Of a DNA stretch of 64,000 bases, positions 17,302-28,504 are shown piece by piece. The notes under the pieces were generated by a model. That model saw nothing but the letters and a program-made list of their open reading frames with translations. It had not been told where the DNA came from and did not search any database. Origin of the DNA: a phage; sequence record PZ445446.1. One strand, given 5' to 3'. The position numbers and the translations under genes are program-made. Every line of letters starts with the position of its first letter. The stretch's first letter is position 1.

Positions 17302-17535
17302 TTAATCTTCGTAAATCAGGATCTCTGCTTTAGGTTTTCGTGCTTTCAGGTCCAGCTCTATCCAGTGCACCATAGCTGTTTCAAGAAAAACAGCCTGTAT
17401 GCATCCGTCTTCAGCGTGCCCTACCAGCATAACAAGATCTTCACCTTCATCATCTGCATCACGAACATACAAAATCTCTCCAGATTCAAAGTCTTTCACA
17501 ACCTGATTGCTGGATAATTTACGAATTTTTGCCAT
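17302..17535 (-). CDS. hypothetical small acidic protein
   Basis: 77-aa ORF. Confidence 0.4.
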   Translation of the reverse strand: MAKIRKLSSNQVVKDFESGEILYVRDADDEGEDLVMLVGHAEDGCIQAVFLETAMVHWIELDLKARKPKAEILIYED

Positions 17536-17536
17536 A

Positions 17537-17800
17537 TCAGAAACCCTCTAAAAAGCTCTTGTAGAAAATAATCTCAGTATCCACACCAGTCACGATCTTG
17601 TCGTTCCTGATTTCATCTGTAAGATAGGTGTCAAAACGCAGCACCTGTGTGGTATTGTCACACATCCACTCGGCTGTGACCATGGCAAAAATCTTAGCAT
17701 CTTCATTATCCGGTGTGAATGTTACCACCTCACCGCATTTAAACTTTTCGATAGGTTGCGTGTTAGCTTTTGGTTCTGCAATAGTGATTTTTGTAGTCAT
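17537..17800 (-). CDS. hypothetical small protein
   Basis: 87-aa ORF. Confidence 0.4.
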   Translation of the reverse strand: MTTKITIAEPKANTQPIEKFKCGEVVTFTPDNEDAKIFAMVTAEWMCDNTTQVLRFDTYLTDEIRNDKIVTGVDTEIIFYKSFLEGF

Positions 17801-18066
17801 TACTCTTCCTTCATAGTTTCACCAAATACTTCGATACGAGCGTCAAGCTCTGTTGCTTTCAGCTCCCCAACAAAATCTTTTAGTTCTTTCTCGTCCAGAT
17901 CGTAAGCCCACACACAAGAAGAACATGCAGATTTCACAATCAGCAGCGTAGATACACGACCTGACTCTGTGATCATGCTCACAATGGTTCCCACAGGGAA
18001 CGTGTTGATAGCTTTTTTAACTGGGCGTTCAGCTTTAATTACTACCTCTGTTGCCATAAATAACAT
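17800..18066 (-). CDS. hypothetical small protein
   Basis: 88-aa ORF. Confidence 0.4.
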   Translation of the reverse strand: MLFMATEVVIKAERPVKKAINTFPVGTIVSMITESGRVSTLLIVKSACSSCVWAYDLDEKELKDFVGELKATELDARIEVFGETMKEE

Positions 18067-18072
18067 CCTCTC

Positions 18073-19554
18073 TTACTTAGCGTACTCGATTAATTCCACA
18101 GTTTTACCAAAGCTAGGGATATAATTTTTATTATACCCTTCGGTGAGAACCCATAAAGTATCGTACTTTTTCCACTTGTTGTCAACAGCCTTTTGTTCAA
18201 AGTTATGCTCAAAGTATAGGTCGGTCAGGACGATGACATCTTTTGCATTTGGTATGTTGGCATCTAGATACTCGAACACGCAAGCAGCTGTTGTGCCCCA
18301 TGTTGAGTGGACCTCATAGTTGATCATTTCGTCTATGTTGCCGCGAGTATATACTTTAACCTCTCCGACTTCAGTTGACCAACAGAACATTGTAACCTTA
18401 AACTCTTTATACAGATTGCACAATCCGGTGATTTCATTGAACATTTTCTTTAAAGTTCTTTGAGAGATTGAGCCAGAAACGTCTAAAGCTACCACAATAT
18501 CTATGGTGTTTTCCGGATTACGACCAGGAACAATAACGTGCTGGTTCTTGTTTATAGCCCCAACTTTTCGCATTGTGCTGGTCAAAGACCCAGATCGGCG
18601 ACCAGGTTTTCTGTAGGTCAGTTCAGCCTTTCGTTTAGACAATATGCGTTGCTTAATAATGTCTATATAGTTGATTACAGGCTTACCTCTGTTCTTGACG
18701 AACTCACGCACCGCCTCAGGGCAACGACCTCCGGAAGCTTGCATTGCTGCCTCCAGCATGTCACCAGAGTCCTGCATGGCCTGATCTTTATCAGATTGGC
18801 TGATTACAGGTTGTGGCTGATCATACCCCATAGCCTTTCCAAGATCATCACTGGTGCCACCGTTCCCACTCATGTGATCATCGGTTTGTCGCTTATCCCC
18901 TTGAGAGTTCTCACCTTTACCGCTCTTACTTTTACCGTTATTCTGATCTCTTTGCTTATCAAGAACTGCATAAACGTTCTCAGCAATCCATCCATGAAAC
19001 TTCATGTCGCAGTAGCAGCTGGCTAAGAAGCCAAAAGGCTTACCTTCCACAAACGTAGTGCTTTTCCCCTTCGGGAAGAAAACACAAGGAGGCTTACTAA
19101 AGTCAACCACAAGACCTGTGTTGATAACGTGATCACAAGCAATATTGAACAGTTCCGGCTCAAAACTTTTACCACGGACCAGGTGATCACAGATAATATG
19201 CCCCACCTCATGTGACAGAAGAAAGGCCACCTCCTTCACAGATTTGGGGGAATAGAAAACCTCAGCCATCCCAAACTGTTCGTCAGTTAGAGAAGCCTTA
19301 AGAATAGCCCTGCGTTCATCAGCCAATCCCATAATGAACTCAGGACTGTAATAGATGCGTTTATGGTCGGTTGCCATGGTAGAGCACCATGTGTGGTTTT
19401 CTACAAACTGCAACCCTGACAGTAGCGTGCCATAAAACGGCAGCTTTTCAAGGAGATACATACGTGCAGCCTGCAACATTCTCAGGGCATCATCTTTCTG
19501 TGAGGCAATGATTTCTGAACTTCTGCTATCCATTAAAACTCCAGAAGGGGCCAA
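18073..19554 (-). CDS. zincin-like metallopeptidase / von Willebrand factor A domain protein
   Basis: 493 aa; HExxH (HEVGHIICDH) in N-terminal half; MIDAS-like VVALDVSGSIS in C-terminal half. Confidence 0.6.
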   Translation of the reverse strand: MAPSGVLMDSRSSEIIASQKDDALRMLQAARMYLLEKLPFYGTLLSGLQFVENHTWCSTMATDHKRIYYSPEFIMGLADERRAILKASLTDEQFGMAEVFYSPKSVKEVAFLLSHEVGHIICDHLVRGKSFEPELFNIACDHVINTGLVVDFSKPPCVFFPKGKSTTFVEGKPFGFLASCYCDMKFHGWIAENVYAVLDKQRDQNNGKSKSGKGENSQGDKRQTDDHMSGNGGTSDDLGKAMGYDQPQPVISQSDKDQAMQDSGDMLEAAMQASGGRCPEAVREFVKNRGKPVINYIDIIKQRILSKRKAELTYRKPGRRSGSLTSTMRKVGAINKNQHVIVPGRNPENTIDIVVALDVSGSISQRTLKKMFNEITGLCNLYKEFKVTMFCWSTEVGEVKVYTRGNIDEMINYEVHSTWGTTAACVFEYLDANIPNAKDVIVLTDLYFEHNFEQKAVDNKWKKYDTLWVLTEGYNKNYIPSFGKTVELIEYAK

Positions 19555-19566
19555 TGGCCCCTGTCA

Positions 19567-20610
19567 TTATTTAACGTGTTTGAAAATACCTGCCAACTCG
19601 GTCATTGTCATGCGGGTGGTCTTCATAAGATCTGTCATAGCTTTCTCCATAATTGGAGATACTACCATAAAGTTACCTTTGGTGAAACCTTTATTCCAGT
19701 CGGTCACTAACAGGGGCTTAAGTCCAGCTCCGAGACGTTCACCAGTTAAAGCACAGCATTTGCGAACATACGAACTCTTAAATTGGCTGAACGACAGATC
19801 AACTTTCATACCTGCATCGTAGAACGTTTGACAATAGAAAGTGTAAGCCTTAGCAACCTCAACATCATCAGGCAGTGCAGGAACCTCTTCTGCAATCTCC
19901 TCTTCGACCTCCTGAGGCTCTTTTTCCTCTTCAGAGTTCTGTTCTCCAATTTCTTCTGTCACAGTTTCGTTTACGATGTCTGAAATGTGTTTGTTGGCTG
20001 CACGATCAGCCATGAAATTTTTAAAGTCCTGCATTGGTGACATATCTTCTTCCTCTTCGTCAAAAAGTGCTAGTTTATCTTCTTCTGTCCCGTATTGCAA
20101 GATGAAATCTTCAAAAGTATAATCACCTTTCAATTTCTCCATACGCTCTTCGCTCAGGTGAAGCATCATCTGCTGGACAATTTTTCGATCAGTTTTGTCT
20201 TTTATCAATATTGCAGTCTTTTTATCTACCAGACAGTCTTTCAGAGCGTTGCACCTCAACCCTACCACACAACAATTGTCAATTGCGTAAGGACCTTCAT
20301 CATCTATCCGCTCCAGAGATGGGTAGAAAGGATTCCCCAGCCCGTTTTCATCTGTGTGCATGTCGAAAGGTATAAGAGTATAGTCGCATACCCCCTCTCC
20401 TAAAAGTTTTTTACCAAATAGGAGGTATTCTTCCCATGACAGGTTGAACTCTATATCTCGTTTCCGTGCATTATTTTGTTTGCGTCTGTATTTTTTGAGC
20501 AGGCGCTCTAACTCTTCTGGTGTATAATATTTTTCAAGATTCATGAGTTGTCTCTCGTGCTCTGTAGGTGAAGAAATCTTATCAAGTGCCTCGACAGATG
20601 TCAACCTCAA
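19567..20610 (-). CDS. hypothetical protein with acidic central region (possible His-Me finger nuclease-like motif)
   Basis: 347 aa; Glu/Asp-rich low-complexity centre; segment …NPFYPSLERIDDEGPYAIDNC… faintly HNH-like (uncertain). Confidence 0.4.
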   Translation of the reverse strand: MRLTSVEALDKISSPTEHERQLMNLEKYYTPEELERLLKKYRRKQNNARKRDIEFNLSWEEYLLFGKKLLGEGVCDYTLIPFDMHTDENGLGNPFYPSLERIDDEGPYAIDNCCVVGLRCNALKDCLVDKKTAILIKDKTDRKIVQQMMLHLSEERMEKLKGDYTFEDFILQYGTEEDKLALFDEEEEDMSPMQDFKNFMADRAANKHISDIVNETVTEEIGEQNSEEEKEPQEVEEEIAEEVPALPDDVEVAKAYTFYCQTFYDAGMKVDLSFSQFKSSYVRKCCALTGERLGAGLKPLLVTDWNKGFTKGNFMVVSPIMEKAMTDLMKTTRMTMTELAGIFKHVK

Positions 20611-20617
20611 AAACGTG

Positions 20618-20646
20618 TTGACTTTACTATAAATCTACGATATAGT
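20618..20646 (+). promoter_or_regulatory. sigma70-type promoter TTGACT-N17-TATAGT
   Basis: In divergent intergenic region before the first rightward gene. Confidence 0.55.
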
Positions 20647-20686
20647 GCACCCATTCGAAAGAAAACGAACACAGGAGCACTTAATC

Positions 20687-21586
20687 ATGGCAAATCTTAA
20701 CAGCTTTAGCACTCGGTGGAAACAAGATATCACAACCAATCTCTCAGCAGGTGATATCCTTTCTGCAATTTACGAGGCTTTGGATGATAAAGCTACTTCA
20801 AAATCGGTTTGTACCAACCCGCTAATTCCTATAGTAATGAAGGTTATTGAGCGTAGGCTGGTATCCGGATCTGATAAGTGGACATATCTGGATAATGGAG
20901 GCCACACTTACTCCAACGGCTATGTCGATATAAAAGTAGAATATGCGGTATCATATCGCCGGAGCGGCTCTGTAACTTTCAACTTTTCTGGAGGTTTCCG
21001 ATCTCTGGCAACTTCACCTTTTGTTTCCTCAGAGGAGAGGTTTGAACTTCCGTTCCTTTGGATGATGGCTAACGCGACAGGCAAAACCCCTGTAAGCATT
21101 CGCGTAAAATACAACTACAACGGATCTAGTAAGATCTATGCCGAGAGTGTCTCAGCAAGTTTTTATTTTGTGATGGGGGATGGAATCCTCAAACATATAA
21201 AGATGTGTGATATGCATGATGTTATAAATGAAGTGACTGATAAGAATGTTCTGGTGAAGGATCTCAACAATTTTTATACACCGGGAGACTATTACGTCAA
21301 CCGTCCACTGTGCATCTTTAATGCTGCACACCCTTTAGGTGAGTATTTGATTGCCAATAGTGATATTGCCAATAACCGCTTCGAGGTAGCAAGAGTACAG
21401 AATGAGGTATTGACATCTTGCAAGAGTGGTGATAAGTTCACCGAAGAAGAGATGGGCGTTTTAGAAATGATGGGATATAAGTGTAGCCTTTGGGTAGATG
21501 AGGTGTTTAATGACGGCATCTATGGACAGGATATTTACCCGTTAAAGAAGTATACTGATTCCAGTTTAATTTACGCGGAGATTTGA
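20687..21586 (+). CDS. hypothetical protein
   Basis: ATG with AGGAG RBS downstream of TTGACT-N17-TATAGT promoter; track ORF extends upstream to GTG 20645 but that overlaps the -10. Confidence 0.5.
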   Translation: MANLNSFSTRWKQDITTNLSAGDILSAIYEALDDKATSKSVCTNPLIPIVMKVIERRLVSGSDKWTYLDNGGHTYSNGYVDIKVEYAVSYRRSGSVTFNFSGGFRSLATSPFVSSEERFELPFLWMMANATGKTPVSIRVKYNYNGSSKIYAESVSASFYFVMGDGILKHIKMCDMHDVINEVTDKNVLVKDLNNFYTPGDYYVNRPLCIFNAAHPLGEYLIANSDIANNRFEVARVQNEVLTSCKSGDKFTEEEMGVLEMMGYKCSLWVDEVFNDGIYGQDIYPLKKYTDSSLIYAEI

Positions 21587-21861
21587 CTATGATGAAGGCA
21601 TGTGGTAATGTATATTACGTCGGTGAACATGTTCAGGCAGACAGTGTGTGGAAATCTATTAAGTCCACCACTGACGATGCCTTTCTGAGTGGACTATGTT
21701 TCCCCAACCCTGGAGACATCCTCCCTCACCCTGGAGATTTTGTTGTTAACAAGATGGACGGTTATACCGTGTGCCTGATGGTTGAAAAAATCTTTTTAGA
21801 CACTAGACACAATCACCGTCTTGTGTTAAAATTTCAAGAATGTAAAATGACAATTGCCTAA
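21583..21861 (+). CDS. hypothetical protein
   Basis: 92-aa ORF, ATGA stop/start overlap. Confidence 0.4.
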   Translation: MTMMKACGNVYYVGEHVQADSVWKSIKSTTDDAFLSGLCFPNPGDILPHPGDFVVNKMDGYTVCLMVEKIFLDTRHNHRLVLKFQECKMTIA

Positions 21862-21874
21862 GGAGGCCTTACCG

Positions 21875-22231
21875 ATGTCTAAAGTTACTTATCGTGCAGC
21901 TATTTACTGCAATGAACACCCAATCAATAATGATGGTCACTGTCTTTTTAAAGAAAATCAGTTGGGCTGTATTGTCCTCCCTGATGAAGGGAAAGGTTAT
22001 CTGATTGCATTGACAGGGTTTGAGCCTGAAGCTTTGGAAGCCAATCTGGACTACCTGGTAGAAGAGGGTGCTGCAGACCTGGTTGCCAATGGCCTCTCCA
22101 TAAACCTTGACGAAGTGGAGCGCTTCATGGGCAATTACCGTGTAGTGCGTGAGTTCACTATCGAGGTGGAAACTCCAGAGTGGGGTAGCTCTGAAACTAA
22201 TGCCGAAGAAAAAGAAGAGGAGGTAGAATAA
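21875..22231 (+). CDS. hypothetical protein, acidic C-terminus
   Basis: Internal ATG with AAGGAGG RBS chosen over track start 21854; ends EEKEEEVE. Confidence 0.45.
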   Translation: MSKVTYRAAIYCNEHPINNDGHCLFKENQLGCIVLPDEGKGYLIALTGFEPEALEANLDYLVEEGAADLVANGLSINLDEVERFMGNYRVVREFTIEVETPEWGSSETNAEEKEEEVE

Positions 22232-22488
22232 TGAAAGTGCAGATCTTGACCAATGCCGAGAAGATGTTTATTGAAGATACACCTTTTGAAGCTGGTGAGC
22301 TACAGTTCATTTATTTTGTTGACTTAGATAAGGTGTTCCCTGCACTGAATATGGGTCTGGATGAAGTTCCTCATAAGGTTTTGTGCCAAGTTGTTCGTGC
22401 CTTAGCGGCAGATGGGGAGTTCCACACTCTTGAAGATATCCAGACCTACGGGTATCTTGAACTACAACGAGAAGAAGAGGTGGACTGA
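22231..22488 (+). CDS. hypothetical acidic protein
   Basis: 85-aa ORF, stop/start overlap. Confidence 0.45.
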   Translation: MKVQILTNAEKMFIEDTPFEAGELQFIYFVDLDKVFPALNMGLDEVPHKVLCQVVRALAADGEFHTLEDIQTYGYLELQREEEVD

Positions 22489-22490
22489 TA

Positions 22491-22871
22491 ATGGCCCGGT
22501 GGAAGACAACAGTTGACCTGCATGATCAGTGGTTAGGACGCATCACTGAAGACGGGAAGCTAGTGGAGTGGGACAATAAGCATGTTAGCGAGTTGGCAAG
22601 TATTGTGGCTGGTAAGTTACGCTCCAAGTTCCCTGAACAACTGGATCCTGATAGTTCAAAGTTCGATCCTGAGTTGGAGGATGTTGTATACTACTTCGAT
22701 ACCGTGGATGACTACGATGCGTGGTTTGCAGCACGGGAGCTTTACCCACAAGGCTCTGCTATGCGCCAGATGGAAGAAGATTATCCTCCGTGTGAGCAAT
22801 TCAATAGTGCAATGACTTGCCTCTATGATTGGGCAGATAAGAACCTTGTCTGGATTCGGACTGCATTCTAG
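22491..22871 (+). CDS. hypothetical protein
   Basis: 126-aa ORF. Confidence 0.45.
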   Translation: MARWKTTVDLHDQWLGRITEDGKLVEWDNKHVSELASIVAGKLRSKFPEQLDPDSSKFDPELEDVVYYFDTVDDYDAWFAARELYPQGSAMRQMEEDYPPCEQFNSAMTCLYDWADKNLVWIRTAF

Positions 22872-22915
22872 TGGGCAGGAATGGCGGCAAGGATGCTGCT
22901 TAAGGAGTAGTAGAG

Positions 22916-23185
22916 ATGTTATACCAGCAATATGAACTTCGTGCAGAAAAAGAGTTAAATTTTGACAAAGATATTCACAGATATTATTATGGGAAAGTTA
23001 GAGGGCAAGCAAGAAAGTGTACTCCAACACTCTTTTATGCCAGCAGACGACTAGCGCCAGAAGAGGCAACAGCAGAAAGGGTTGCGTTCAACTGGAAAGT
23101 CACGTATAATATTGACAGATCCGATGTGATATCTGTTTTGGAAAACTTTGAAAACACTTACACACAAGTAGAGGACTTTTACTAA
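22916..23185 (+). CDS. hypothetical protein
   Basis: 89-aa ORF. Confidence 0.4.
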   Translation: MLYQQYELRAEKELNFDKDIHRYYYGKVRGQARKCTPTLFYASRRLAPEEATAERVAFNWKVTYNIDRSDVISVLENFENTYTQVEDFY

Positions 23186-24369
23186 TGTCAAGAAACGTAT
23201 TCGAAAGTGGTCAAATCACTGTCCGTGAGTTGCCAGCTATTATTCAGTTTGCCCAACGTCATAGCCGATCTGTCCTAATTTTGGGACCAATGGGTGTGGG
23301 TAAAAGCCAGGTGATGAAGCAGATCGCTGATAATATGTTCGGTGAGCGAGATGACAACCTTGTTGACGTGCGACTGTCAGATAAAGATCCTGCCGACTTA
23401 TCTGGGCTACCTATCCCTGTAGAAGCGGATGGAACTACACGTACAGTGTTTGCAATTCCAGAATTTTGGCCTGCGGATCCTGACTGGAGCGGAATTATCT
23501 TTCTGGATGAGCTCACTCATGCAGATAACTACCTGCAAAAGGTTGCAATGCAAATTATGCTTGACCACAAGTGCGGCACCTATGCATTCCCTAAGGGTTC
23601 TGTTTTTGTGGCTGCGGGTAACCGTTCTACAGATGGTGCGGTTCTTTCGGCGCTCGAAGCCCCTCTGGCTAACCGTTTTATCATTGTAGAAGTTACAAGC
23701 AATGCAGAGGTGTTTATTGAGGACTACGCATTCCTCAATGGGGTGCACTCCTCTGTAATTGGGTATCTGAAAAGAGTTCCATCAGCTATCGATAATTATG
23801 AGGCTATGGCTGAGATTAATTGTCCATCTTTTGCCACACCGCGATCTTGGGTTGCTGCATCTGACATCTTGCACGATTTTGACAGCGGTATTATTTCTGA
23901 CGCTATGGCCCGTGTTCTTCTGCAAGGTGCTATTGGTCACACTGCAGCGGTAGAGATCTGGACCTACCACACCAAGAAACGCAACTTACCGGAAATCGGT
24001 CGGATTATGGCAGGGGGTTGCAAAGAATACATAGGTCCTAAACAGCCAGACATCTTGTGGATTCTTGGGTCTGAAGGTTGTATCGCTATTCGTAATATGA
24101 TGGAAAATGCAAGTATCTCCGACGAAGATCTTGTTAGCTGTGTAGCAAACTTCCTCGATTTCCTTTGGGAAAATTTCAAGGACGAGAACCGAGATTTTGT
24201 ATTCTCAGTCTTTATGGCGATGATGAAACCTAATGCCTTAGGAAATGCCTTGCTTATCGGTAAAGGGCGTGACAAGATCGTTGCTCAACTGATCAAAGCG
24301 TACCCAAACCTGATGAAGATTGTAAAAGAGTTTGGTGAAGAGTTTAGCGCCATTTTAGCTAAAGCTTAA
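23185..24369 (+). CDS. AAA+ ATPase (MoxR/CobS-like)
   Basis: 394 aa; Walker A LILGPMGVGKSQ, Walker B IIFLDELTHAD. Confidence 0.65.
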   Translation: MSRNVFESGQITVRELPAIIQFAQRHSRSVLILGPMGVGKSQVMKQIADNMFGERDDNLVDVRLSDKDPADLSGLPIPVEADGTTRTVFAIPEFWPADPDWSGIIFLDELTHADNYLQKVAMQIMLDHKCGTYAFPKGSVFVAAGNRSTDGAVLSALEAPLANRFIIVEVTSNAEVFIEDYAFLNGVHSSVIGYLKRVPSAIDNYEAMAEINCPSFATPRSWVAASDILHDFDSGIISDAMARVLLQGAIGHTAAVEIWTYHTKKRNLPEIGRIMAGGCKEYIGPKQPDILWILGSEGCIAIRNMMENASISDEDLVSCVANFLDFLWENFKDENRDFVFSVFMAMMKPNALGNALLIGKGRDKIVAQLIKAYPNLMKIVKEFGEEFSAILAKA

Positions 24370-24378
24370 GGGGGTTGT

Positions 24379-24759
24379 ATGGCTAAAGTAGGTAAGCGGG
24401 GAAATTACCGGGTGGTATTGACCGAGGAGCCGGAGAAGGAGTACGAATGCAGCTCCACTTGCGTGATTGATATCCGAGAAAAAGGTGTAGATGAAATCTG
24501 GTTTAAAATATTGGACGCTTGCGATAGCAGTGATTATTTCTTCATCTATGTCAACGATAAGGCTGGGTTCTTCCATGACGACGGAGAGTTGCCGTATGAA
24601 ATCTATGAACTTGTAGAGGCTTGCCATCGTGGAGATGCGGAGTTGTTTGGCTTACGGCTGAAAAGCGGTAAATTCTTCTATCAAGATGAGTGCATGAATC
24701 TTCATAACTTTGTAGAGGGAACTTGCAACGATGGAGAGATTTTGGCACACTACGATTAA
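24379..24759 (+). CDS. hypothetical protein
   Basis: 126-aa ORF followed by hairpin terminator. Confidence 0.45.
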   Translation: MAKVGKRGNYRVVLTEEPEKEYECSSTCVIDIREKGVDEIWFKILDACDSSDYFFIYVNDKAGFFHDDGELPYEIYELVEACHRGDAELFGLRLKSGKFFYQDECMNLHNFVEGTCNDGEILAHYD

Positions 24760-24771
24760 TTTCTAAGACCT

Positions 24772-24795
24772 CCCCCGCTTCGGCGGGGATTTTCT
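24772..24795 (+). terminator. intrinsic terminator (UUCG tetraloop)
   Basis: CCCCGC-ttcg-GCGGGG then ATTTT after stop 24759. Confidence 0.55.
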
Positions 24796-24808
24796 ATTTG
24801 GAGTCATT

Positions 24809-25309
24809 GTGAAAATTAAGATCTTTGCTATTATTTTGAGCGCACTTTTATCGCTACCTGTTGTTGCAGCACCAAAACAAAAAGTATATCATACTTGCAA
24901 GCCATCAGATACTAAGGAAAACATTCTGGCATGCAATATCTACAGGGAAGCTAGAGGAGATGGCACGATGGGTATGCTGGCATCTGGGTTTGCCACACTA
25001 AACAGGAAATCCCACCCTAAATACCCAGACACTATAAGAAAGATTGTCTACCAACCTAACCAGTTTTCGTGGACAAACCACGGCAAAACTTTTAAGGTGA
25101 CAGAAAAAGATTCATGGGATCACGCTAAAAGTCTTGCAAAGATGCTTCTAAAGGTCTATAATAACAACCATGTTGCATACATGGCTATGGATATAACAGG
25201 TGGAGCAACACACTACCATACAACCAAAGTACGACCGAAGTGGGCAAAAAAGATGCAGAGGACAGCTCAATTCGGGAGTCATATCTACTACAAGGAGCGC
25301 AATAAATGA
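24809..25309 (+). CDS. secreted cell-wall hydrolase (SleB/CwlJ-like), candidate endolysin
   Basis: GTG start after GGAG; N-terminal signal peptide (MKIKIFAIILSALLSLPVVAA); NIYREARGDG…TLNR…QPNQFSWTN resembles Hydrolase_2 family. Confidence 0.55.
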   Translation: MKIKIFAIILSALLSLPVVAAPKQKVYHTCKPSDTKENILACNIYREARGDGTMGMLASGFATLNRKSHPKYPDTIRKIVYQPNQFSWTNHGKTFKVTEKDSWDHAKSLAKMLLKVYNNNHVAYMAMDITGGATHYHTTKVRPKWAKKMQRTAQFGSHIYYKERNK

Positions 25310-27288
25310 TTGTAAACAGTAATGAAACTAAAGCGGTACTGACCGGGAATATGGAGGTCACCAGGGGCTCAATTTCTCTGAACAAAGAGACTTTTGGGCT
25401 AATCATTAAAGGGATTTACGAAGACAAGGTGCTGGCAAGCTGCCGTGAACCAATCTTCAATGCCGTGGACTCTCATGTTGAGTCTGGACGGGGTGATGTA
25501 CCGATCATCATTCACTCTCCTACAGACCTTGAACCATACTTCTTTGTGCAGGACGTTGGATTGGGCATGTCAGAAGAGATGGTCCGCAACACTTTCATGA
25601 ACCTCGGGGAGTCAACCAAGCGCAACAGCAACGCTCTGGTAGGTAATAAAGGTGTTGGTTCAAAGGCTCCGTTCAGCATGGTGGACACTTTCGATGTTAT
25701 CAGTGTGCACAATGGTGTTGAAAGCACATATCTATTGTTCTTGGATCAGGGTATCCCAAACGTTACCAAGATCCGTGAGCGGAAGACTGAAGAGCACAAC
25801 GGGGTAAAAGTTCAGTTCCATGTTAAGAAAGAGCATGTCCTGAAATATCGCACTGCTATTGCATCGTGCTTACGCTATGCGAAGTTTCCGTTCATCGTCA
25901 CCGATCCTATGACCAGTAAGATGTTAGAAGGTGACAAGGTTGAGGCACAGTATCATTACGAGAAGGATGGCTGGAAAATGACCATCCTGAAAGGTTATAC
26001 CAGTTCTGATGAGAGCCGTGTTGTGATGGGTCACCAACCTTACCGCTCCAAGTTCCTGGAGACATTGACCGATTACCCTGCAATCTGCGTGGAAATTCCT
26101 ATTGGGGATTGCAATATTAACCCTGGGCGTGAATGGACCATAGAGGGCCATGACGACGGTGGATTCCAGGATCGCCTGGAGGCCTTTGTCAAAGAAGGTA
26201 TACGTCTTCGCGGGGCAGAAGTTGTTGCAGAACTGGAGACGGCAAAAACCTCCGCAGAAGCACGTGAAATGATGAAGAATAGTGGAGTGTTCGGACACAT
26301 CTTCGGCAAAAACTTTATGTGGAACCGTTGGGAAGAAACAGGGCTTGGCGACTTAGGCGATTGTGAAATTTTCGCTGGCGGCTTAAATAAAGGCCGCATA
26401 GGCTATGCTCGTTACGGAAAGTCGGAGTTCTTACGAGGTGTATACCTTGTATTTAACGACGGAGACGGCAAATATAACCGGAATAAGTGTAACTACTTAA
26501 GCGAGATCACCGGACGCAACGTTTTCTATTGCCGGAACACGGATCTGGTGAAAGAGTTTAAAGAGGCGGCACACCATCCGTTCTTTGCAGATACGGTCAA
26601 ATTGTTATCGGAGCTTCCACGCCGACCTGCGAAGAAAGGTGAAACCAAAACTCGTTACGAGCCAGGCTACTGGGTTAAGAAGCTTAGAGAGGATGGCTAC
26701 TTCCATCGTGAGCGCCTCACGAAGGCAGAGTTCAAGAAGATTAAGCATTGCATCCCTTATGAGGGGGATATCCAACGGGGAAGCTGCTGGCTGGGCCAGA
26801 TGAGTAACATCTACCAGCAAAATTATGACCGTGTGCGTGCTGCACTCCAGATTCCTGAAGGTGAAGATCTGTACCTGGTATCAGAATCTCGTCTGCTTTG
26901 GACTGATCCTGATTGCCAGTATGTTACAGAGAAGAATGTGGAACATTTGTTGAAAGAGGATGCTTGGAAATTCTTACTGACTCGCGCAGCAAATGAAACT
27001 TCATATGACAGCCTGTATAGACAATTAGGGAAAATTATCCCCATGCAGGATTTTGGAAATTATCGGCCACATTTCCACAAGTGGGAAGGTAACACCGCGT
27101 GGAAGCACAGTGAGCTAAATCATCGTGCCAAAATCTTAATCGCCAACCGGGTTAAGTGCGGGAAGGCCTATATTGCAAGATTGGAAAAGAAATATCCACT
27201 TTTGAAGCATGTGGGCTTGAAATATTGGGACACTCCTGCTATGATTGAATACCGTGAACTGATTGATACAAAGAATAACATCAAATAA
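25306..27288 (+). CDS. GHKL-type ATPase, rIIA-like
   Basis: 660 aa; N-box EPIFNAVDS, G1 DVGLGM, G2 GNKGVGSKAPF of HATPase_c fold at N-terminus, as in phage rIIA. Confidence 0.5.
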   Translation: MIVNSNETKAVLTGNMEVTRGSISLNKETFGLIIKGIYEDKVLASCREPIFNAVDSHVESGRGDVPIIIHSPTDLEPYFFVQDVGLGMSEEMVRNTFMNLGESTKRNSNALVGNKGVGSKAPFSMVDTFDVISVHNGVESTYLLFLDQGIPNVTKIRERKTEEHNGVKVQFHVKKEHVLKYRTAIASCLRYAKFPFIVTDPMTSKMLEGDKVEAQYHYEKDGWKMTILKGYTSSDESRVVMGHQPYRSKFLETLTDYPAICVEIPIGDCNINPGREWTIEGHDDGGFQDRLEAFVKEGIRLRGAEVVAELETAKTSAEAREMMKNSGVFGHIFGKNFMWNRWEETGLGDLGDCEIFAGGLNKGRIGYARYGKSEFLRGVYLVFNDGDGKYNRNKCNYLSEITGRNVFYCRNTDLVKEFKEAAHHPFFADTVKLLSELPRRPAKKGETKTRYEPGYWVKKLREDGYFHRERLTKAEFKKIKHCIPYEGDIQRGSCWLGQMSNIYQQNYDRVRAALQIPEGEDLYLVSESRLLWTDPDCQYVTEKNVEHLLKEDAWKFLLTRAANETSYDSLYRQLGKIIPMQDFGNYRPHFHKWEGNTAWKHSELNHRAKILIANRVKCGKAYIARLEKKYPLLKHVGLKYWDTPAMIEYRELIDTKNNIK

Positions 27289-27298
27289 GGAGACCAAG

Positions 27299-28504
27299 AT
27301 GATTTTCATTTACGAACACTTCAAAACTCGTAAAGAAGCACGTGACCGCCGTGCAGAACTTGAGAAGAAGGGTTTCACATGTGCCATTGAGAAAGGTGAC
27401 ACAACCTGGACACTGGCAGTGGGTGCCCCAGAGTTGTTCGATCCTGACCGTGACAGCGTCTGCTACACCCGTGAGGATTTTGAAACCCGTGAAGAGGCCC
27501 GTTTATTTCGATATGGGCTGGAAGATAACGGTAAGTACGCCATGATCTTAGACTTGGGCGAAGGTTCCGTTAAACGTTGGGGCGTGGTATACCCACTGTG
27601 TGTTGTTCACGGTGTGGGGTTCACTGGGGTGGCAATCAAGTCAGAAGGACCTTTAGTAGAAGTCAAAGATCCGGTGCTGGAGGTGGTGAGCAGTGTGTCT
27701 CAGCAACAGACTCGAAGCATCGAGCCTTTAGTAGTTATTTGTGGAGAACTCCTCCAGATCACCTGCAACGAAGGTATTTTTGAAATTCGCCGCAGTGAAA
27801 GTGAGGAAGTTTACCAGAAAGTCTTCGACCATATCTCTGTTCAGGAATATGACGAGGCAATTGGTGAAATCCTTGTCTGGTTGGAACGCAAGAATGAGTT
27901 CACCACACTTGCAGACAACCTGATCATGAAGGATGGTAAGCTCTACTACTACGGTGTAGAGATGCGATCCACCATTGCAAAGAAAATTGAGAAAGATTAT
28001 GCAGACGGAACACTGGATGACCGCTATGTGAAATTCCTAGTTCGCCTGCTACGCAATCCTTCTGCAAAATCTGTAAACATGCTCTACGATTTTATGCAGG
28101 CCAACGATATCCAGATTGCAGAAGATGGTCGAATCATTTGCTACAAAGGGGTTCAGTTTAACGGCAGCAAGTGGGTGGATTGGCACAGTGGTAAAGTTCC
28201 ACAATACCAGGGTGCTTTTGTATCCATGCCTCGTAACTTTGTAGAGGATGATCCGGAAGCTGCGTGCTCCTATGGCTTACACTGCGCCAGCAAAGAGTAT
28301 GCAAAGAGCTACGGCACTGTAATGACTGTTATGGTTGATCCTGCAGATGTGGTTAGTGTGCCATACCAACACAATAGCGCTAAGTGCCGTGCATGCCGCT
28401 ATGAGATTGTGGTAGCTCCGGAAGCACGCAAAGATGGAGACCCTATTGAATATGTAGTTGATCGTGACGGCAACACTATCGACATTCTTTACGAGGAGGC
28501 GTAA
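27299..28504 (+). CDS. hypothetical protein (possible rIIB-like partner)
   Basis: ATG with AAGGAGA RBS just after rIIA-like stop; rIIB assignment rests on adjacency only. Confidence 0.35.
   Translation: MIFIYEHFKTRKEARDRRAELEKKGFTCAIEKGDTTWTLAVGAPELFDPDRDSVCYTREDFETREEARLFRYGLEDNGKYAMILDLGEGSVKRWGVVYPLCVVHGVGFTGVAIKSEGPLVEVKDPVLEVVSSVSQQQTRSIEPLVVICGELLQITCNEGIFEIRRSESEEVYQKVFDHISVQEYDEAIGEILVWLERKNEFTTLADNLIMKDGKLYYYGVEMRSTIAKKIEKDYADGTLDDRYVKFLVRLLRNPSAKSVNMLYDFMQANDIQIAEDGRIICYKGVQFNGSKWVDWHSGKVPQYQGAFVSMPRNFVEDDPEAACSYGLHCASKEYAKSYGTVMTVMVDPADVVSVPYQHNSAKCRACRYEIVVAPEARKDGDPIEYVVDRDGNTIDILYEEA

Follow-up and report, generated by a model that had tools for sequence, protein, structure and literature searches.

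An AAA+ ATPase of MoxR type and a DUF2201 VWA–metallopeptidase protein, encoded on opposite strands of an rV5-like phage genome, as probable partners

The AAA+ motors NorQ, CbbQ and Midasin all work through a VWA domain with a metal ion-dependent adhesion site (MIDAS). In the NorQ–NorD complex the VWA domain docks on the ring at two places, by a finger in the pore and C-terminally at the post-sensor-1 loop; the linker of the partner is twisted and stretched by ATP hydrolysis, and so the client is remodelled (PMC13036017). A related logic has been set out for vWA–MoxR systems, in which the vWA domain captures a peptide that the MoxR protein releases in remodelled form, and in which peptidase effectors are sometimes fused to the vWA domain (PMC7159879). 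In phages, the homologous counterparts of the locus described here are gp24, an AAA ATPase, and gp25, a vWFA protein, of N4 (Schitoviridae); both belong to the 14 core genes of N4-like phages, are middle-expressed and have no known function (PMC4193335, PMC2784036). The window studied here, a stretch of 64,000 nucleotides (nt) of phage DNA (sequence record PZ445446.1), carries a MoxR-class ATPase gene on the plus strand and, on the minus strand, a gene of the DUF2201 family whose product joins a zincin-like metallopeptidase domain to a VWA domain. With moderate confidence, we take the two products to be halves of one machine, a MoxR-type AAA+/VWA remodeller with a zinc peptidase of its own, made early in infection.

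Comparison with the described systems places the pair in a DUF2201/AAA_5 (N4 gp24/gp25-type) branch of the MoxR–VWA kind, set apart from NorQD, CbbQO and RavA–ViaA by the fused zincin, a mainly phage-borne distribution and, in this lineage, the split gene arrangement. NorD and CbbO have known clients (cNOR and Rubisco, respectively) and lack an HExxH peptidase domain, whereas the DUF2201 protein of the window has a zincin; the phage ATPase is only 16–22% identical to NorQ and CbbQ and has an extra C-terminal helical extension of ∼120 residues. Midasin/Rea1, although it contains a MIDAS/VWA domain of its own, is a giant single polypeptide of six fused AAA modules that serves ribosome biogenesis and has no peptidase. 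The M48 and minigluzincin peptidases (HtpX, BepA and MJ1213 projannalysin) share the edge strand and HExxH helix with the phage N-terminal domain, at marginal E-values, but HtpX and BepA act at the cell envelope, whereas the phage zincin is soluble, fused to a VWA domain and of the form HExxHxxxxH with a conserved arginine and aspartate. The ternary conflict systems (VMAP, iSTAND and FtsH types; Kaur et al. 2020, PMC7159879) have a MoxR and vWA core with vWA-fused effectors that are sometimes peptidases, and act in virus–host conflict; they are cellular, comprise three components and place effectors C-terminal to the vWA domain, in contrast to a two-component, mostly phage-borne pair with an N-terminal zincin. 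PADLOC gave no match for the DUF2201 proteins and P-loop-level matches only (E > 5e-4) for the ATPases, so that neither is identified as part of a defence system there, and NCBIfam gave no meaningful match for either protein. The closest relatives, the N4-like pairs, are adjacent and co-directional middle genes of the phage RNA polymerase (RNAP) II, whereas the window's genes lie on opposite strands behind sigma70-like promoters, and identity between the two groups is only ∼21–29%.

That the ATPase and DUF2201 families form a genuine pair is strongly supported by their linkage elsewhere. Viral loci were collected from IMG/VR by way of one DUF2201 branch, with a single protein (P0024) as query, giving 80 loci out of at least 595 relatives. 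In 74 of the 80 an ATPase gene precedes the DUF2201 gene on the same strand, within 400 bp in 51, within 2 kb in 17 and at 2–5.5 kb in the other six; in five of the six loci where it was not found, the DUF2201 gene sits at a contig edge. A bacterial scan with a bacterial alignment (A6) retrieved a further 80 loci, mostly from sulfur-oxidising Gammaproteobacteria, and wherever enough upstream DNA was present the ATPase gene is on the same strand (73/73), upstream in 72 of the 73 and adjacent in 69. In Sulfurivermis fontis, an AAA_5 gene whose product is 32% identical to the ATPase of the window (E 9e-37) is followed 116 bp on by the DUF2201 gene, and the same order, with a 360-residue ATPase homolog (P0108) in front, is found on uncultured phage contigs. 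An N4-like Sulfitobacter phage has, upstream of its DUF2201 gene, one that encodes a homolog of the window's ATPase (29% identity, E 5e-18), and the neighbour downstream of that ATPase, a DUF2201_N+DUF2201 protein, was recovered as a match of the window's protein; this homology of pair to pair identifies the present genes with N4 gp24/gp25. Both proteins were found by tblastn in many N4-like genomes, some annotated ‘N4 gp24-like’. Searches of cultured phages found the two proteins in 671 and 812 records, and the numbers per taxon are closely parallel (Escherichia 211/213, Pseudomonas 104/108, Pectobacterium 26/26 and Cronobacter 17/17); their pairwise identities between lineages run at 45/50%, 34/35% and ∼21–27/24–29%. 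An earlier note on this DNA, made from its letters alone, had given the MoxR–VWA partnership as established knowledge; the same-strand linkage in viral and bacterial loci strongly supports such a partnership for the two proteins, as do the adjacency in N4-like phages and the co-directional genes of Certrevirus. On this reading the ATPase and the DUF2201 protein would interact physically.

Three side observations arise from these scans. The sole viral locus with full flanks but no ATPase homolog within 10 kb either side of the DUF2201 gene lies on a 344-kb jumbo-phage contig (L032, IMGVR_UViG_3300019776_000324), elsewhere on which an ATPase partner may be encoded. In 39 of the 80 bacterial loci (L090–L169), from sulfur-oxidising Gammaproteobacteria, a third gene of ∼370 codons lies directly downstream of the pair (for example L003 6297–7409); it has no Pfam, PADLOC or NCBIfam match and no homolog in the phage window, and its product may be a third component or a client. 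Finally, an 819-residue metagenomic DUF2201 member (P0025) was considered, on account of its length, as an ATPase–DUF2201 Rosetta-stone fusion and rejected, its extra N-terminal domain of ∼190 residues being an unrelated extension; its peptidase and VWA domains are also joined by a long low-complexity linker rich in Q and G, so that linker length is highly variable in the family.

The DUF2201 gene is equivalent to ORF12(+13) of rV5. The open reading frames (ORFs) to which the earlier note had pointed, 18073–19554 on the minus strand and 23185–24369 on the plus strand, are both present, the former being a mechanical ORF of 493 amino acids (aa) that opens at TTG 19554. Its true start is probably ATG 19533, because a GGAG lies 7–10 nt upstream of that codon and the resulting length matches the 486-aa cluster representative (P0001). 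The product matches Pfam DUF2201_N, ‘putative metallopeptidase’ (E 3e-28; 99.6 bits against a gathering cut-off of 23.2), and Pfam DUF2201, ‘VWA-like’ (E 4e-11; 43.6 bits against 26.4), as well as PHROG 1314 (E 1.6e-122), and so belongs to a family of COG3864 type, a ‘predicted metal-dependent peptidase’ with a VWA-like domain. In an alignment of 30 sequences that reaches down to 21% identity and includes bacterial members, H115, E116, H119, H124, R127 and D141 of the zincin and D358, S360, S362, T421 and D445 of the MIDAS are invariant. The combination of HExxH with a MIDAS-type VWA motif that had been read from the letters is thereby confirmed, and so is the peptidase and VWA assignment by profile, both Pfam models scoring above their gathering thresholds.

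An AlphaFold2 model of the DUF2201 protein (mean pLDDT, the predicted confidence score, 79.7) has a helical domain at the N-terminus, joined by a poorly ordered linker (pLDDT <50 at residues 310–315) to a C-terminal alpha/beta domain, for which fold searches return a Rossmann-like VWA fold. All five MIDAS positions are occupied, and the site would putatively bind metal and capture a ligand through an acidic residue. In the N-terminal domain strands 60–62 and 66–69 precede helix 106–121, which bears H115–H119, as expected of a zincin edge strand and HExxH helix. A profile of this domain searched against all PDB sequences matched zincins only, over the same edge strand and helix: the minigluzincin MJ1213 (E 0.003), an M48 peptidase (0.023), HtpX (0.029) and BepA (0.13). 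A sub-threshold Peptidase_M48 match was also seen in one member of the family, and a single-sequence phmmer search of the DUF2201 protein against PDB gave no match. H124 and D141, both invariant, are candidates for the third zinc ligand. In zincins the glutamate of HExxH is the catalytic base and is dispensable for metal binding; its invariance, together with the zincin edge strand, therefore argues that the N-terminal domain may be an active protease rather than a mere holder of metal. R319 and R320 in the basic linker motif are nearly invariant in the 30-sequence alignment, and the motif (TYxRPxRR in the family), which lies where the model has low confidence, might be a segment engaged by the ATPase or a processing site.

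An insertion of ∼35 residues separates the edge strand from the HExxH helix in rV5-like phages and their ∼145-kb relatives (window 19198–19350; residues ∼74–108 of the 493-aa ORF). Helices are predicted at 79–88 and 91–100 within it, and it is not present in N4-like, jumbo-phage or bacterial members, so that the rV5 clade differs from the N4-like proteins in this respect too.

The ATPase, equivalent to rV5 ORF4, is of MoxR type. This assignment comes not from Pfam but from PHROG 1297 (E 2.7e-110), from homologs, from folds and from a profile match. More than 5,700 homologs were found, and those at ∼34% identity carry AAA_3/AAA_5 (precomputed assignments, marked weak where looked up). The 18 top PDB fold matches in Foldseek are all NorQ, mostly within NorQ–NorD complexes, and CbbQ (E 7e-9 to 6e-7), and the best PDB sequence match of the family profile is the Midasin AAA_5 ring (E 3e-11). 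The AlphaFold2 model (pLDDT 83.4) contains the helix-2-insert strands (76–81/84–89) and the short strands before sensor 1 (∼129–134) of the MoxR clade in addition to the C-terminal extension. The catalytic residues GKS 39–41, DE 108–109, N146, R164 and R220 are invariant in 23 sequences, as is the MoxR-style segment DxRLS...DxxGxP, and a single-sequence phmmer search against PDB returned P-loop matches only. Of the earlier note's MoxR/CobS-like assignment, the MoxR class thus stands by folds and homologs while the protein's own AAA_5 match is sub-threshold, and the ‘CobS-like’ part has no specific support: neither protein matches the CobS_N/CobS or CobT/CobT_C Pfam families at E ≤ 0.01 or any NCBIfam model, and the partner is a DUF2201 protein, not CobT. 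By analogy with its relatives, the phage ATPase is proposed to assemble into a hexameric ring and to be stimulated by the VWA partner.

The arrangement in the window departs from the typical one: the two genes are separated by 3.6 kb, with a divergent promoter region between them. Among the viral loci scanned, opposite strands are confined to rV5-type loci. Seunavirus 4MG shares the split in the same order (DUF2201 gene, Srd-like gene, divergent junction, ATPase gene), whereas in Certrevirus (Pectobacterium phage P7_Pc), also within Vequintavirinae, the ATPase, a homing endonuclease and the DUF2201 protein are encoded in that order on one strand. The split in Vequintavirus and Seunavirus, set against the one-strand arrangement of Certrevirus, therefore marks a rearrangement, specific to this lineage, that broke up an ancestral operon of two genes. 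The split has been kept between Vequintavirus and Seunavirus at 45–50% protein identity and is old enough to predate that divergence. Both genes are under strong purifying selection, with ratios of non-synonymous to synonymous substitution (dN/dS) of 0.064 for the DUF2201 gene and 0.019 for the ATPase gene relative to phage navn. Comparison of the window with the Certrevirus locus shows that these two genes alone are detectably conserved in the neighbourhood. In P7_Pc the homing endonuclease gene (orf124; L088 7564–8061) sits exactly between them; this, with the separation of up to 5.5 kb in other viral loci, suggests that the intergenic position tolerates insertion.

As the earlier note had stated, the genes belong to separate divergent transcription units, at least at the level of sequence. 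The leftward unit opens with the Srd-like gene, whose product also shows weaker matches to Srd anti-sigma and sigma70-decoy families, and has the DUF2201 gene in second place; the ATPase gene is the seventh ORF of the rightward unit. The leftward promoter coincides exactly with P11 as annotated in rV5 (L001 9078–9106, offset 11498), and its −35 box is 14 bp from that of the rightward promoter. Since both units start at adjacent sigma70-like promoters, the split need not mean different timing, and from these signals both genes are probably early and transcribed by host RNAP. A further promoter-like site lies inside an 89-aa ORF just upstream of the ATPase gene, ∼150 bp before the ‘P4’ of the rV5 record (window ∼23112–23139). 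The start of the ATPase gene overlaps the stop of this ORF (TAATG), which suggests translational coupling. On the leftward side, the 33 nt that separate the Srd-like stop from the DUF2201 start contain a perfect GC-rich palindrome, 2–3 nt before the ribosome-binding site; it was picked up in a scan for terminator-like hairpins, has no clear T-run on the minus (coding) strand, and could be an attenuator, a processing or RNase site, or a stability element.

How such a machine might work can be modelled on the known pairs. A MoxR-class (AAA_5-type) ring would form one half, and a dedicated VWA partner with an N-terminal zincin-type zinc peptidase the other. As in NorQ–NorD, CbbQ–CbbO and Midasin, the VWA domain would dock on the ring; its MIDAS would grip an acidic residue of the target protein, and ATP hydrolysis would twist or pull the VWA domain and linker, thereby remodelling either the target or the peptidase itself. 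Cutting of the target by the attached peptidase could follow, making the pair a two-component ATP-dependent remodeller with a built-in protease. On the same model the ancestral operon, ATPase gene before DUF2201 gene, would have been split so that two divergent units are now read from back-to-back sigma70-like promoters. The machine is likely to cleave or remodel one particular protein, of the host or of the phage, in the course of takeover or of DNA metabolism; expression in an early or middle context, and genes of nucleotide metabolism and replication as frequent neighbours in other phages, are compatible with host takeover, counter-defence or the maturation of a phage enzyme.

Several observations weigh against this reading. 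Characterised MoxR–VWA pairs are chaperones or metal-insertion factors, not proteases. The predicted peptidase activity is read from conserved residues only, the N-terminal domain matches PDB entries only marginally (E 0.003–0.2), and the zincin domain was recovered by neither fold search, VWA matches having filled both lists. The ATPase's own Pfam matches are all sub-threshold P-loop or AAA families (AAA_5 at 16.7 bits against 22, and no AAA_3). A NorD-type finger insertion is not obvious in the compact VWA model, and no natural fusion of ATPase and DUF2201 was found, P0025 not being one. As to expression, the promoters are consensus matches, the 34 promoter-like sites found being not clearly above the 25.3 ± 5.5 of shuffled sequence; the hairpin before the DUF2201 gene could uncouple its expression; and no transcriptome data were found in the literature searches. 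The earlier note's statement that the role in phage infection is uncharacterised agrees with these searches, in which DUF2201 received passing mentions only and queries for rV5 with MoxR, for DUF2201 and for Vequintavirus or Schitoviridae expression yielded nothing functional. Genome-wide CRISPRi-ART screens covered T4, T5, SUSP1 (which is not rV5-like) and PTXU04, with EdH4 and N4 used for single genes only, and a phage transposon-sequencing (Tn-seq) preprint dealt with unrelated phages.

A stronger version of the proposal, which we advance tentatively and which may well prove wrong, is that the pair represents an uncharacterised class of ATP-dependent protease, a MoxR-type ring with a VWA/MIDAS adaptor fused to a zinc peptidase, deployed early by many virulent phage lineages against a specific host complex. 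If true, this would make N4 gp24/gp25 and related pairs a widespread machine for host takeover or counter-defence, used by N4-like podoviruses, Vequintavirinae and several jumbo phages against targets such as a defence or housekeeping factor. Whatever its activity, the AAA+/VWA–peptidase pair is one of the few modules common to otherwise unrelated virulent phages, being found in ∼670–810 cultured phage genomes (N4-like, rV5-like and relatives, and jumbo phages); hundreds of viral metagenome contigs have it too, as do bacteria. Joining the split rV5 genes as a pair gives a testable mechanistic model built on the new NorQ–NorD structures, and tractable coliphages for study of the module exist in the rV5-like EdH4, the BASEL phages and N4.

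The main rival explanation is a chaperone for metal-cofactor insertion or maturation, acting in the manner of NorQ–NorD, CobS–CobT, BchI–BchD or CoxD–CoxE on a metalloenzyme of phage or host, such as one of nucleotide metabolism, with the HExxH domain as a module that holds or delivers metal. It draws on the fact that NorQ and CbbQ, which are all the characterised close structural relatives of the ATPase, are VWA-dependent maturases or activases and none is part of a protease (PMC13036017, PMC9976466), and on the setting of the pair in other phages, among genes for thymidylate synthase, ThyX, dUTPase and 5′–3′ exonuclease. We nevertheless regard it as unlikely, since it leaves unexplained why the HExxH glutamate is invariant together with an upstream substrate-edge strand typical of M48 and minigluzincin peptidases. 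CobS_N, CobT and chelatase Pfam matches are absent from the pair; a ferrochelatase gene, which near one bacterial locus had seemed to favour this explanation, is a neighbour in only seven of the 80 bacterial loci; and no client gene is conservedly linked in phages, the conservation between Vequintavirus and Certrevirus being that of the pair alone.

It is also conceivable, but quite improbable, that in rV5-like phages each protein has acted alone or with another partner since the split and that their co-occurrence is a historical remnant. Opposite strands, the distance, different transcription units, a possible extra promoter of the ATPase gene and the hairpin before the DUF2201 gene would all suit such independence, as would the jumbo-phage contig on which the DUF2201 gene has no ATPase within 10 kb either side. 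Against it, both genes have stayed intact since the split in Vequintavirus and Seunavirus, with all catalytic, MIDAS and ATPase residues kept and under strong selection, and the two proteins diverge at similar rates across lineages. Moreover, same-strand separation of up to 5.5 kb in other phages indicates that a trans-acting protein pair can tolerate distance. The features of the locus are collected in Table 1.

Table 1. Positions in the window of the two genes, their domains and motifs, and the signals at the divergent junction
Feature	Position	Strand	Remarks
DUF2201-family gene, 486 aa	18073–19533	−	N-terminal zincin-like metallopeptidase domain, basic linker, C-terminal VWA domain; homolog of N4 gp25
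Zincin-like (M48/minigluzincin-like) domain	18937–19533	−	HEVGH 19198–19212; H124 19183–19185; R127 19174–19176; D141 19132–19134
VWA domain with complete MIDAS	18091–18504	−	DVSGS 18469–18483; Thr in WGT 18292–18300; TD 18220–18225
Basic linker motif TYRKPGRRSG	18589–18618	−	between peptidase and VWA domains; family consensus TYxRPxRR
GC-rich perfect palindromic hairpin AGGGGCCAATGGCCCCT	19546–19562		terminator-like scan
Srd-like/‘anti-sigma factor’ gene (rV5 ORF11)	19567–20544	−	first gene of leftward unit; PHROG 3118; start MNLEKYYT
Leftward sigma70-like promoter TTGACA-17-TAAGAT, extended TG	20576–20604	−	scan, 10/12 matches
Rightward sigma70-like promoter TTGACT-17-TATAGT	20618–20646	+	scan, 10/12 matches; opens unit reaching ATPase gene
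Promoter-like site TTGACA-17-TATTAT	22962–22990	+	11/12 matches; inside 89-aa ORF upstream of ATPase gene
MoxR-class (AAA_5-like) AAA+ ATPase gene, 394 aa	23185–24369	+	homolog of N4 gp24
ATPase Walker A GPMGVGKS	23284–23307	+	
ATPase MoxR-style segment DVRLS...DLSGLP	23365–23412	+	
ATPase Walker B IIFLDE	23494–23511	+	
ATPase sensor-1 AGNR	23614–23625	+	
ATPase Arg-finger LANR	23665–23676	+	
ATPase sensor-2 ATPR	23833–23844	+	

Three public names of the 486-aa protein deserve virtually no credence: PHROG 1314 is labelled ‘HNH endonuclease’, and many GenBank and RefSeq records say ‘HNH endonuclease’, ‘putative anti-sigma factor’ or ‘DNA repair ATPase’, but the protein has no HNH, Srd or ATPase Pfam match at E ≤ 0.01, DUF2201_N and DUF2201 being its sole significant families, its folds are a VWA and a zincin-like domain with no HNH/His-Me finger family among its Pfam matches at that threshold, and the anti-sigma label appears to belong to the adjoining Srd-like gene. 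The product names of the gene are inconsistent and mostly wrong, ‘HNH endonuclease’ having spread from PHROG 1314 into RefSeq, and only ‘metallopeptidase’ and ‘VWA-like domain protein’ fit. Recognition of the split genes as a pair corrects a widespread mis-annotation (‘HNH endonuclease’, ‘anti-sigma factor’). The Srd-like gene is likewise called ‘HNH endonuclease’ in some records, and the 89-aa ORF upstream of the ATPase gene (window 22916–23185, plus strand) is labelled ‘ATPase’ or ‘MoxR ATPase’ in several, apparently by carry-over from its neighbour.

The rV5 type record (DQ832317/NC_011041) contains one extra A relative to the window at ∼18284 (L001 position 6786), so that the DUF2201 gene is frameshifted just past the codon of the MIDAS threonine and is annotated as two overlapping frames, ORF12 and ORF13. 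This was considered as a natural knockout and rejected: the gene is intact in the resequenced derivatives rV5_ev147 and rV5_ev158 and in 59 of 60 sampled rV5-like records, and for the same reason the extra A is probably a sequencing error in the 2006 record.

The source is an rV5-like Escherichia phage (Vequintavirus, Vequintavirinae), 96–97% identical to public genomes. Megablast with window positions 17500–25000 returned 121 phage records, of which 114 have at least 80% query coverage at 90–97% identity; nearly all are rV5-like Escherichia phages. In the type phage rV5 the DUF2201 gene is ORF12 (‘hypothetical protein’) and the ATPase gene is ORF4 (‘MoxR ATPase’); newer records name the former ‘metallopeptidase’ or ‘VWA-like domain containing protein’ and the latter ‘ATPase’. 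Novelty is low because these public annotations already exist: both genes and their domain-level annotation are public in more than 100 near-identical genomes, to which the window adds nothing. Downstream of the ATPase gene, window positions 24809–28504 (plus strand) encode a SleB-type cell-wall hydrolase with a signal-like N-terminus (Hydrolase_2, E 2e-19), rIIA (HATPase_c_3; PHROG 612) and rIIB-like proteins, from which the region is taken to be the rV5 early or host-interaction block. Under the name ‘Campylobacter phage’ (MG0656xx, host C. jejuni) there are sixteen records that are ∼96% identical to the E. coli rV5-like phages over 17500–25000, which looks like host misattribution or contamination in that dataset.

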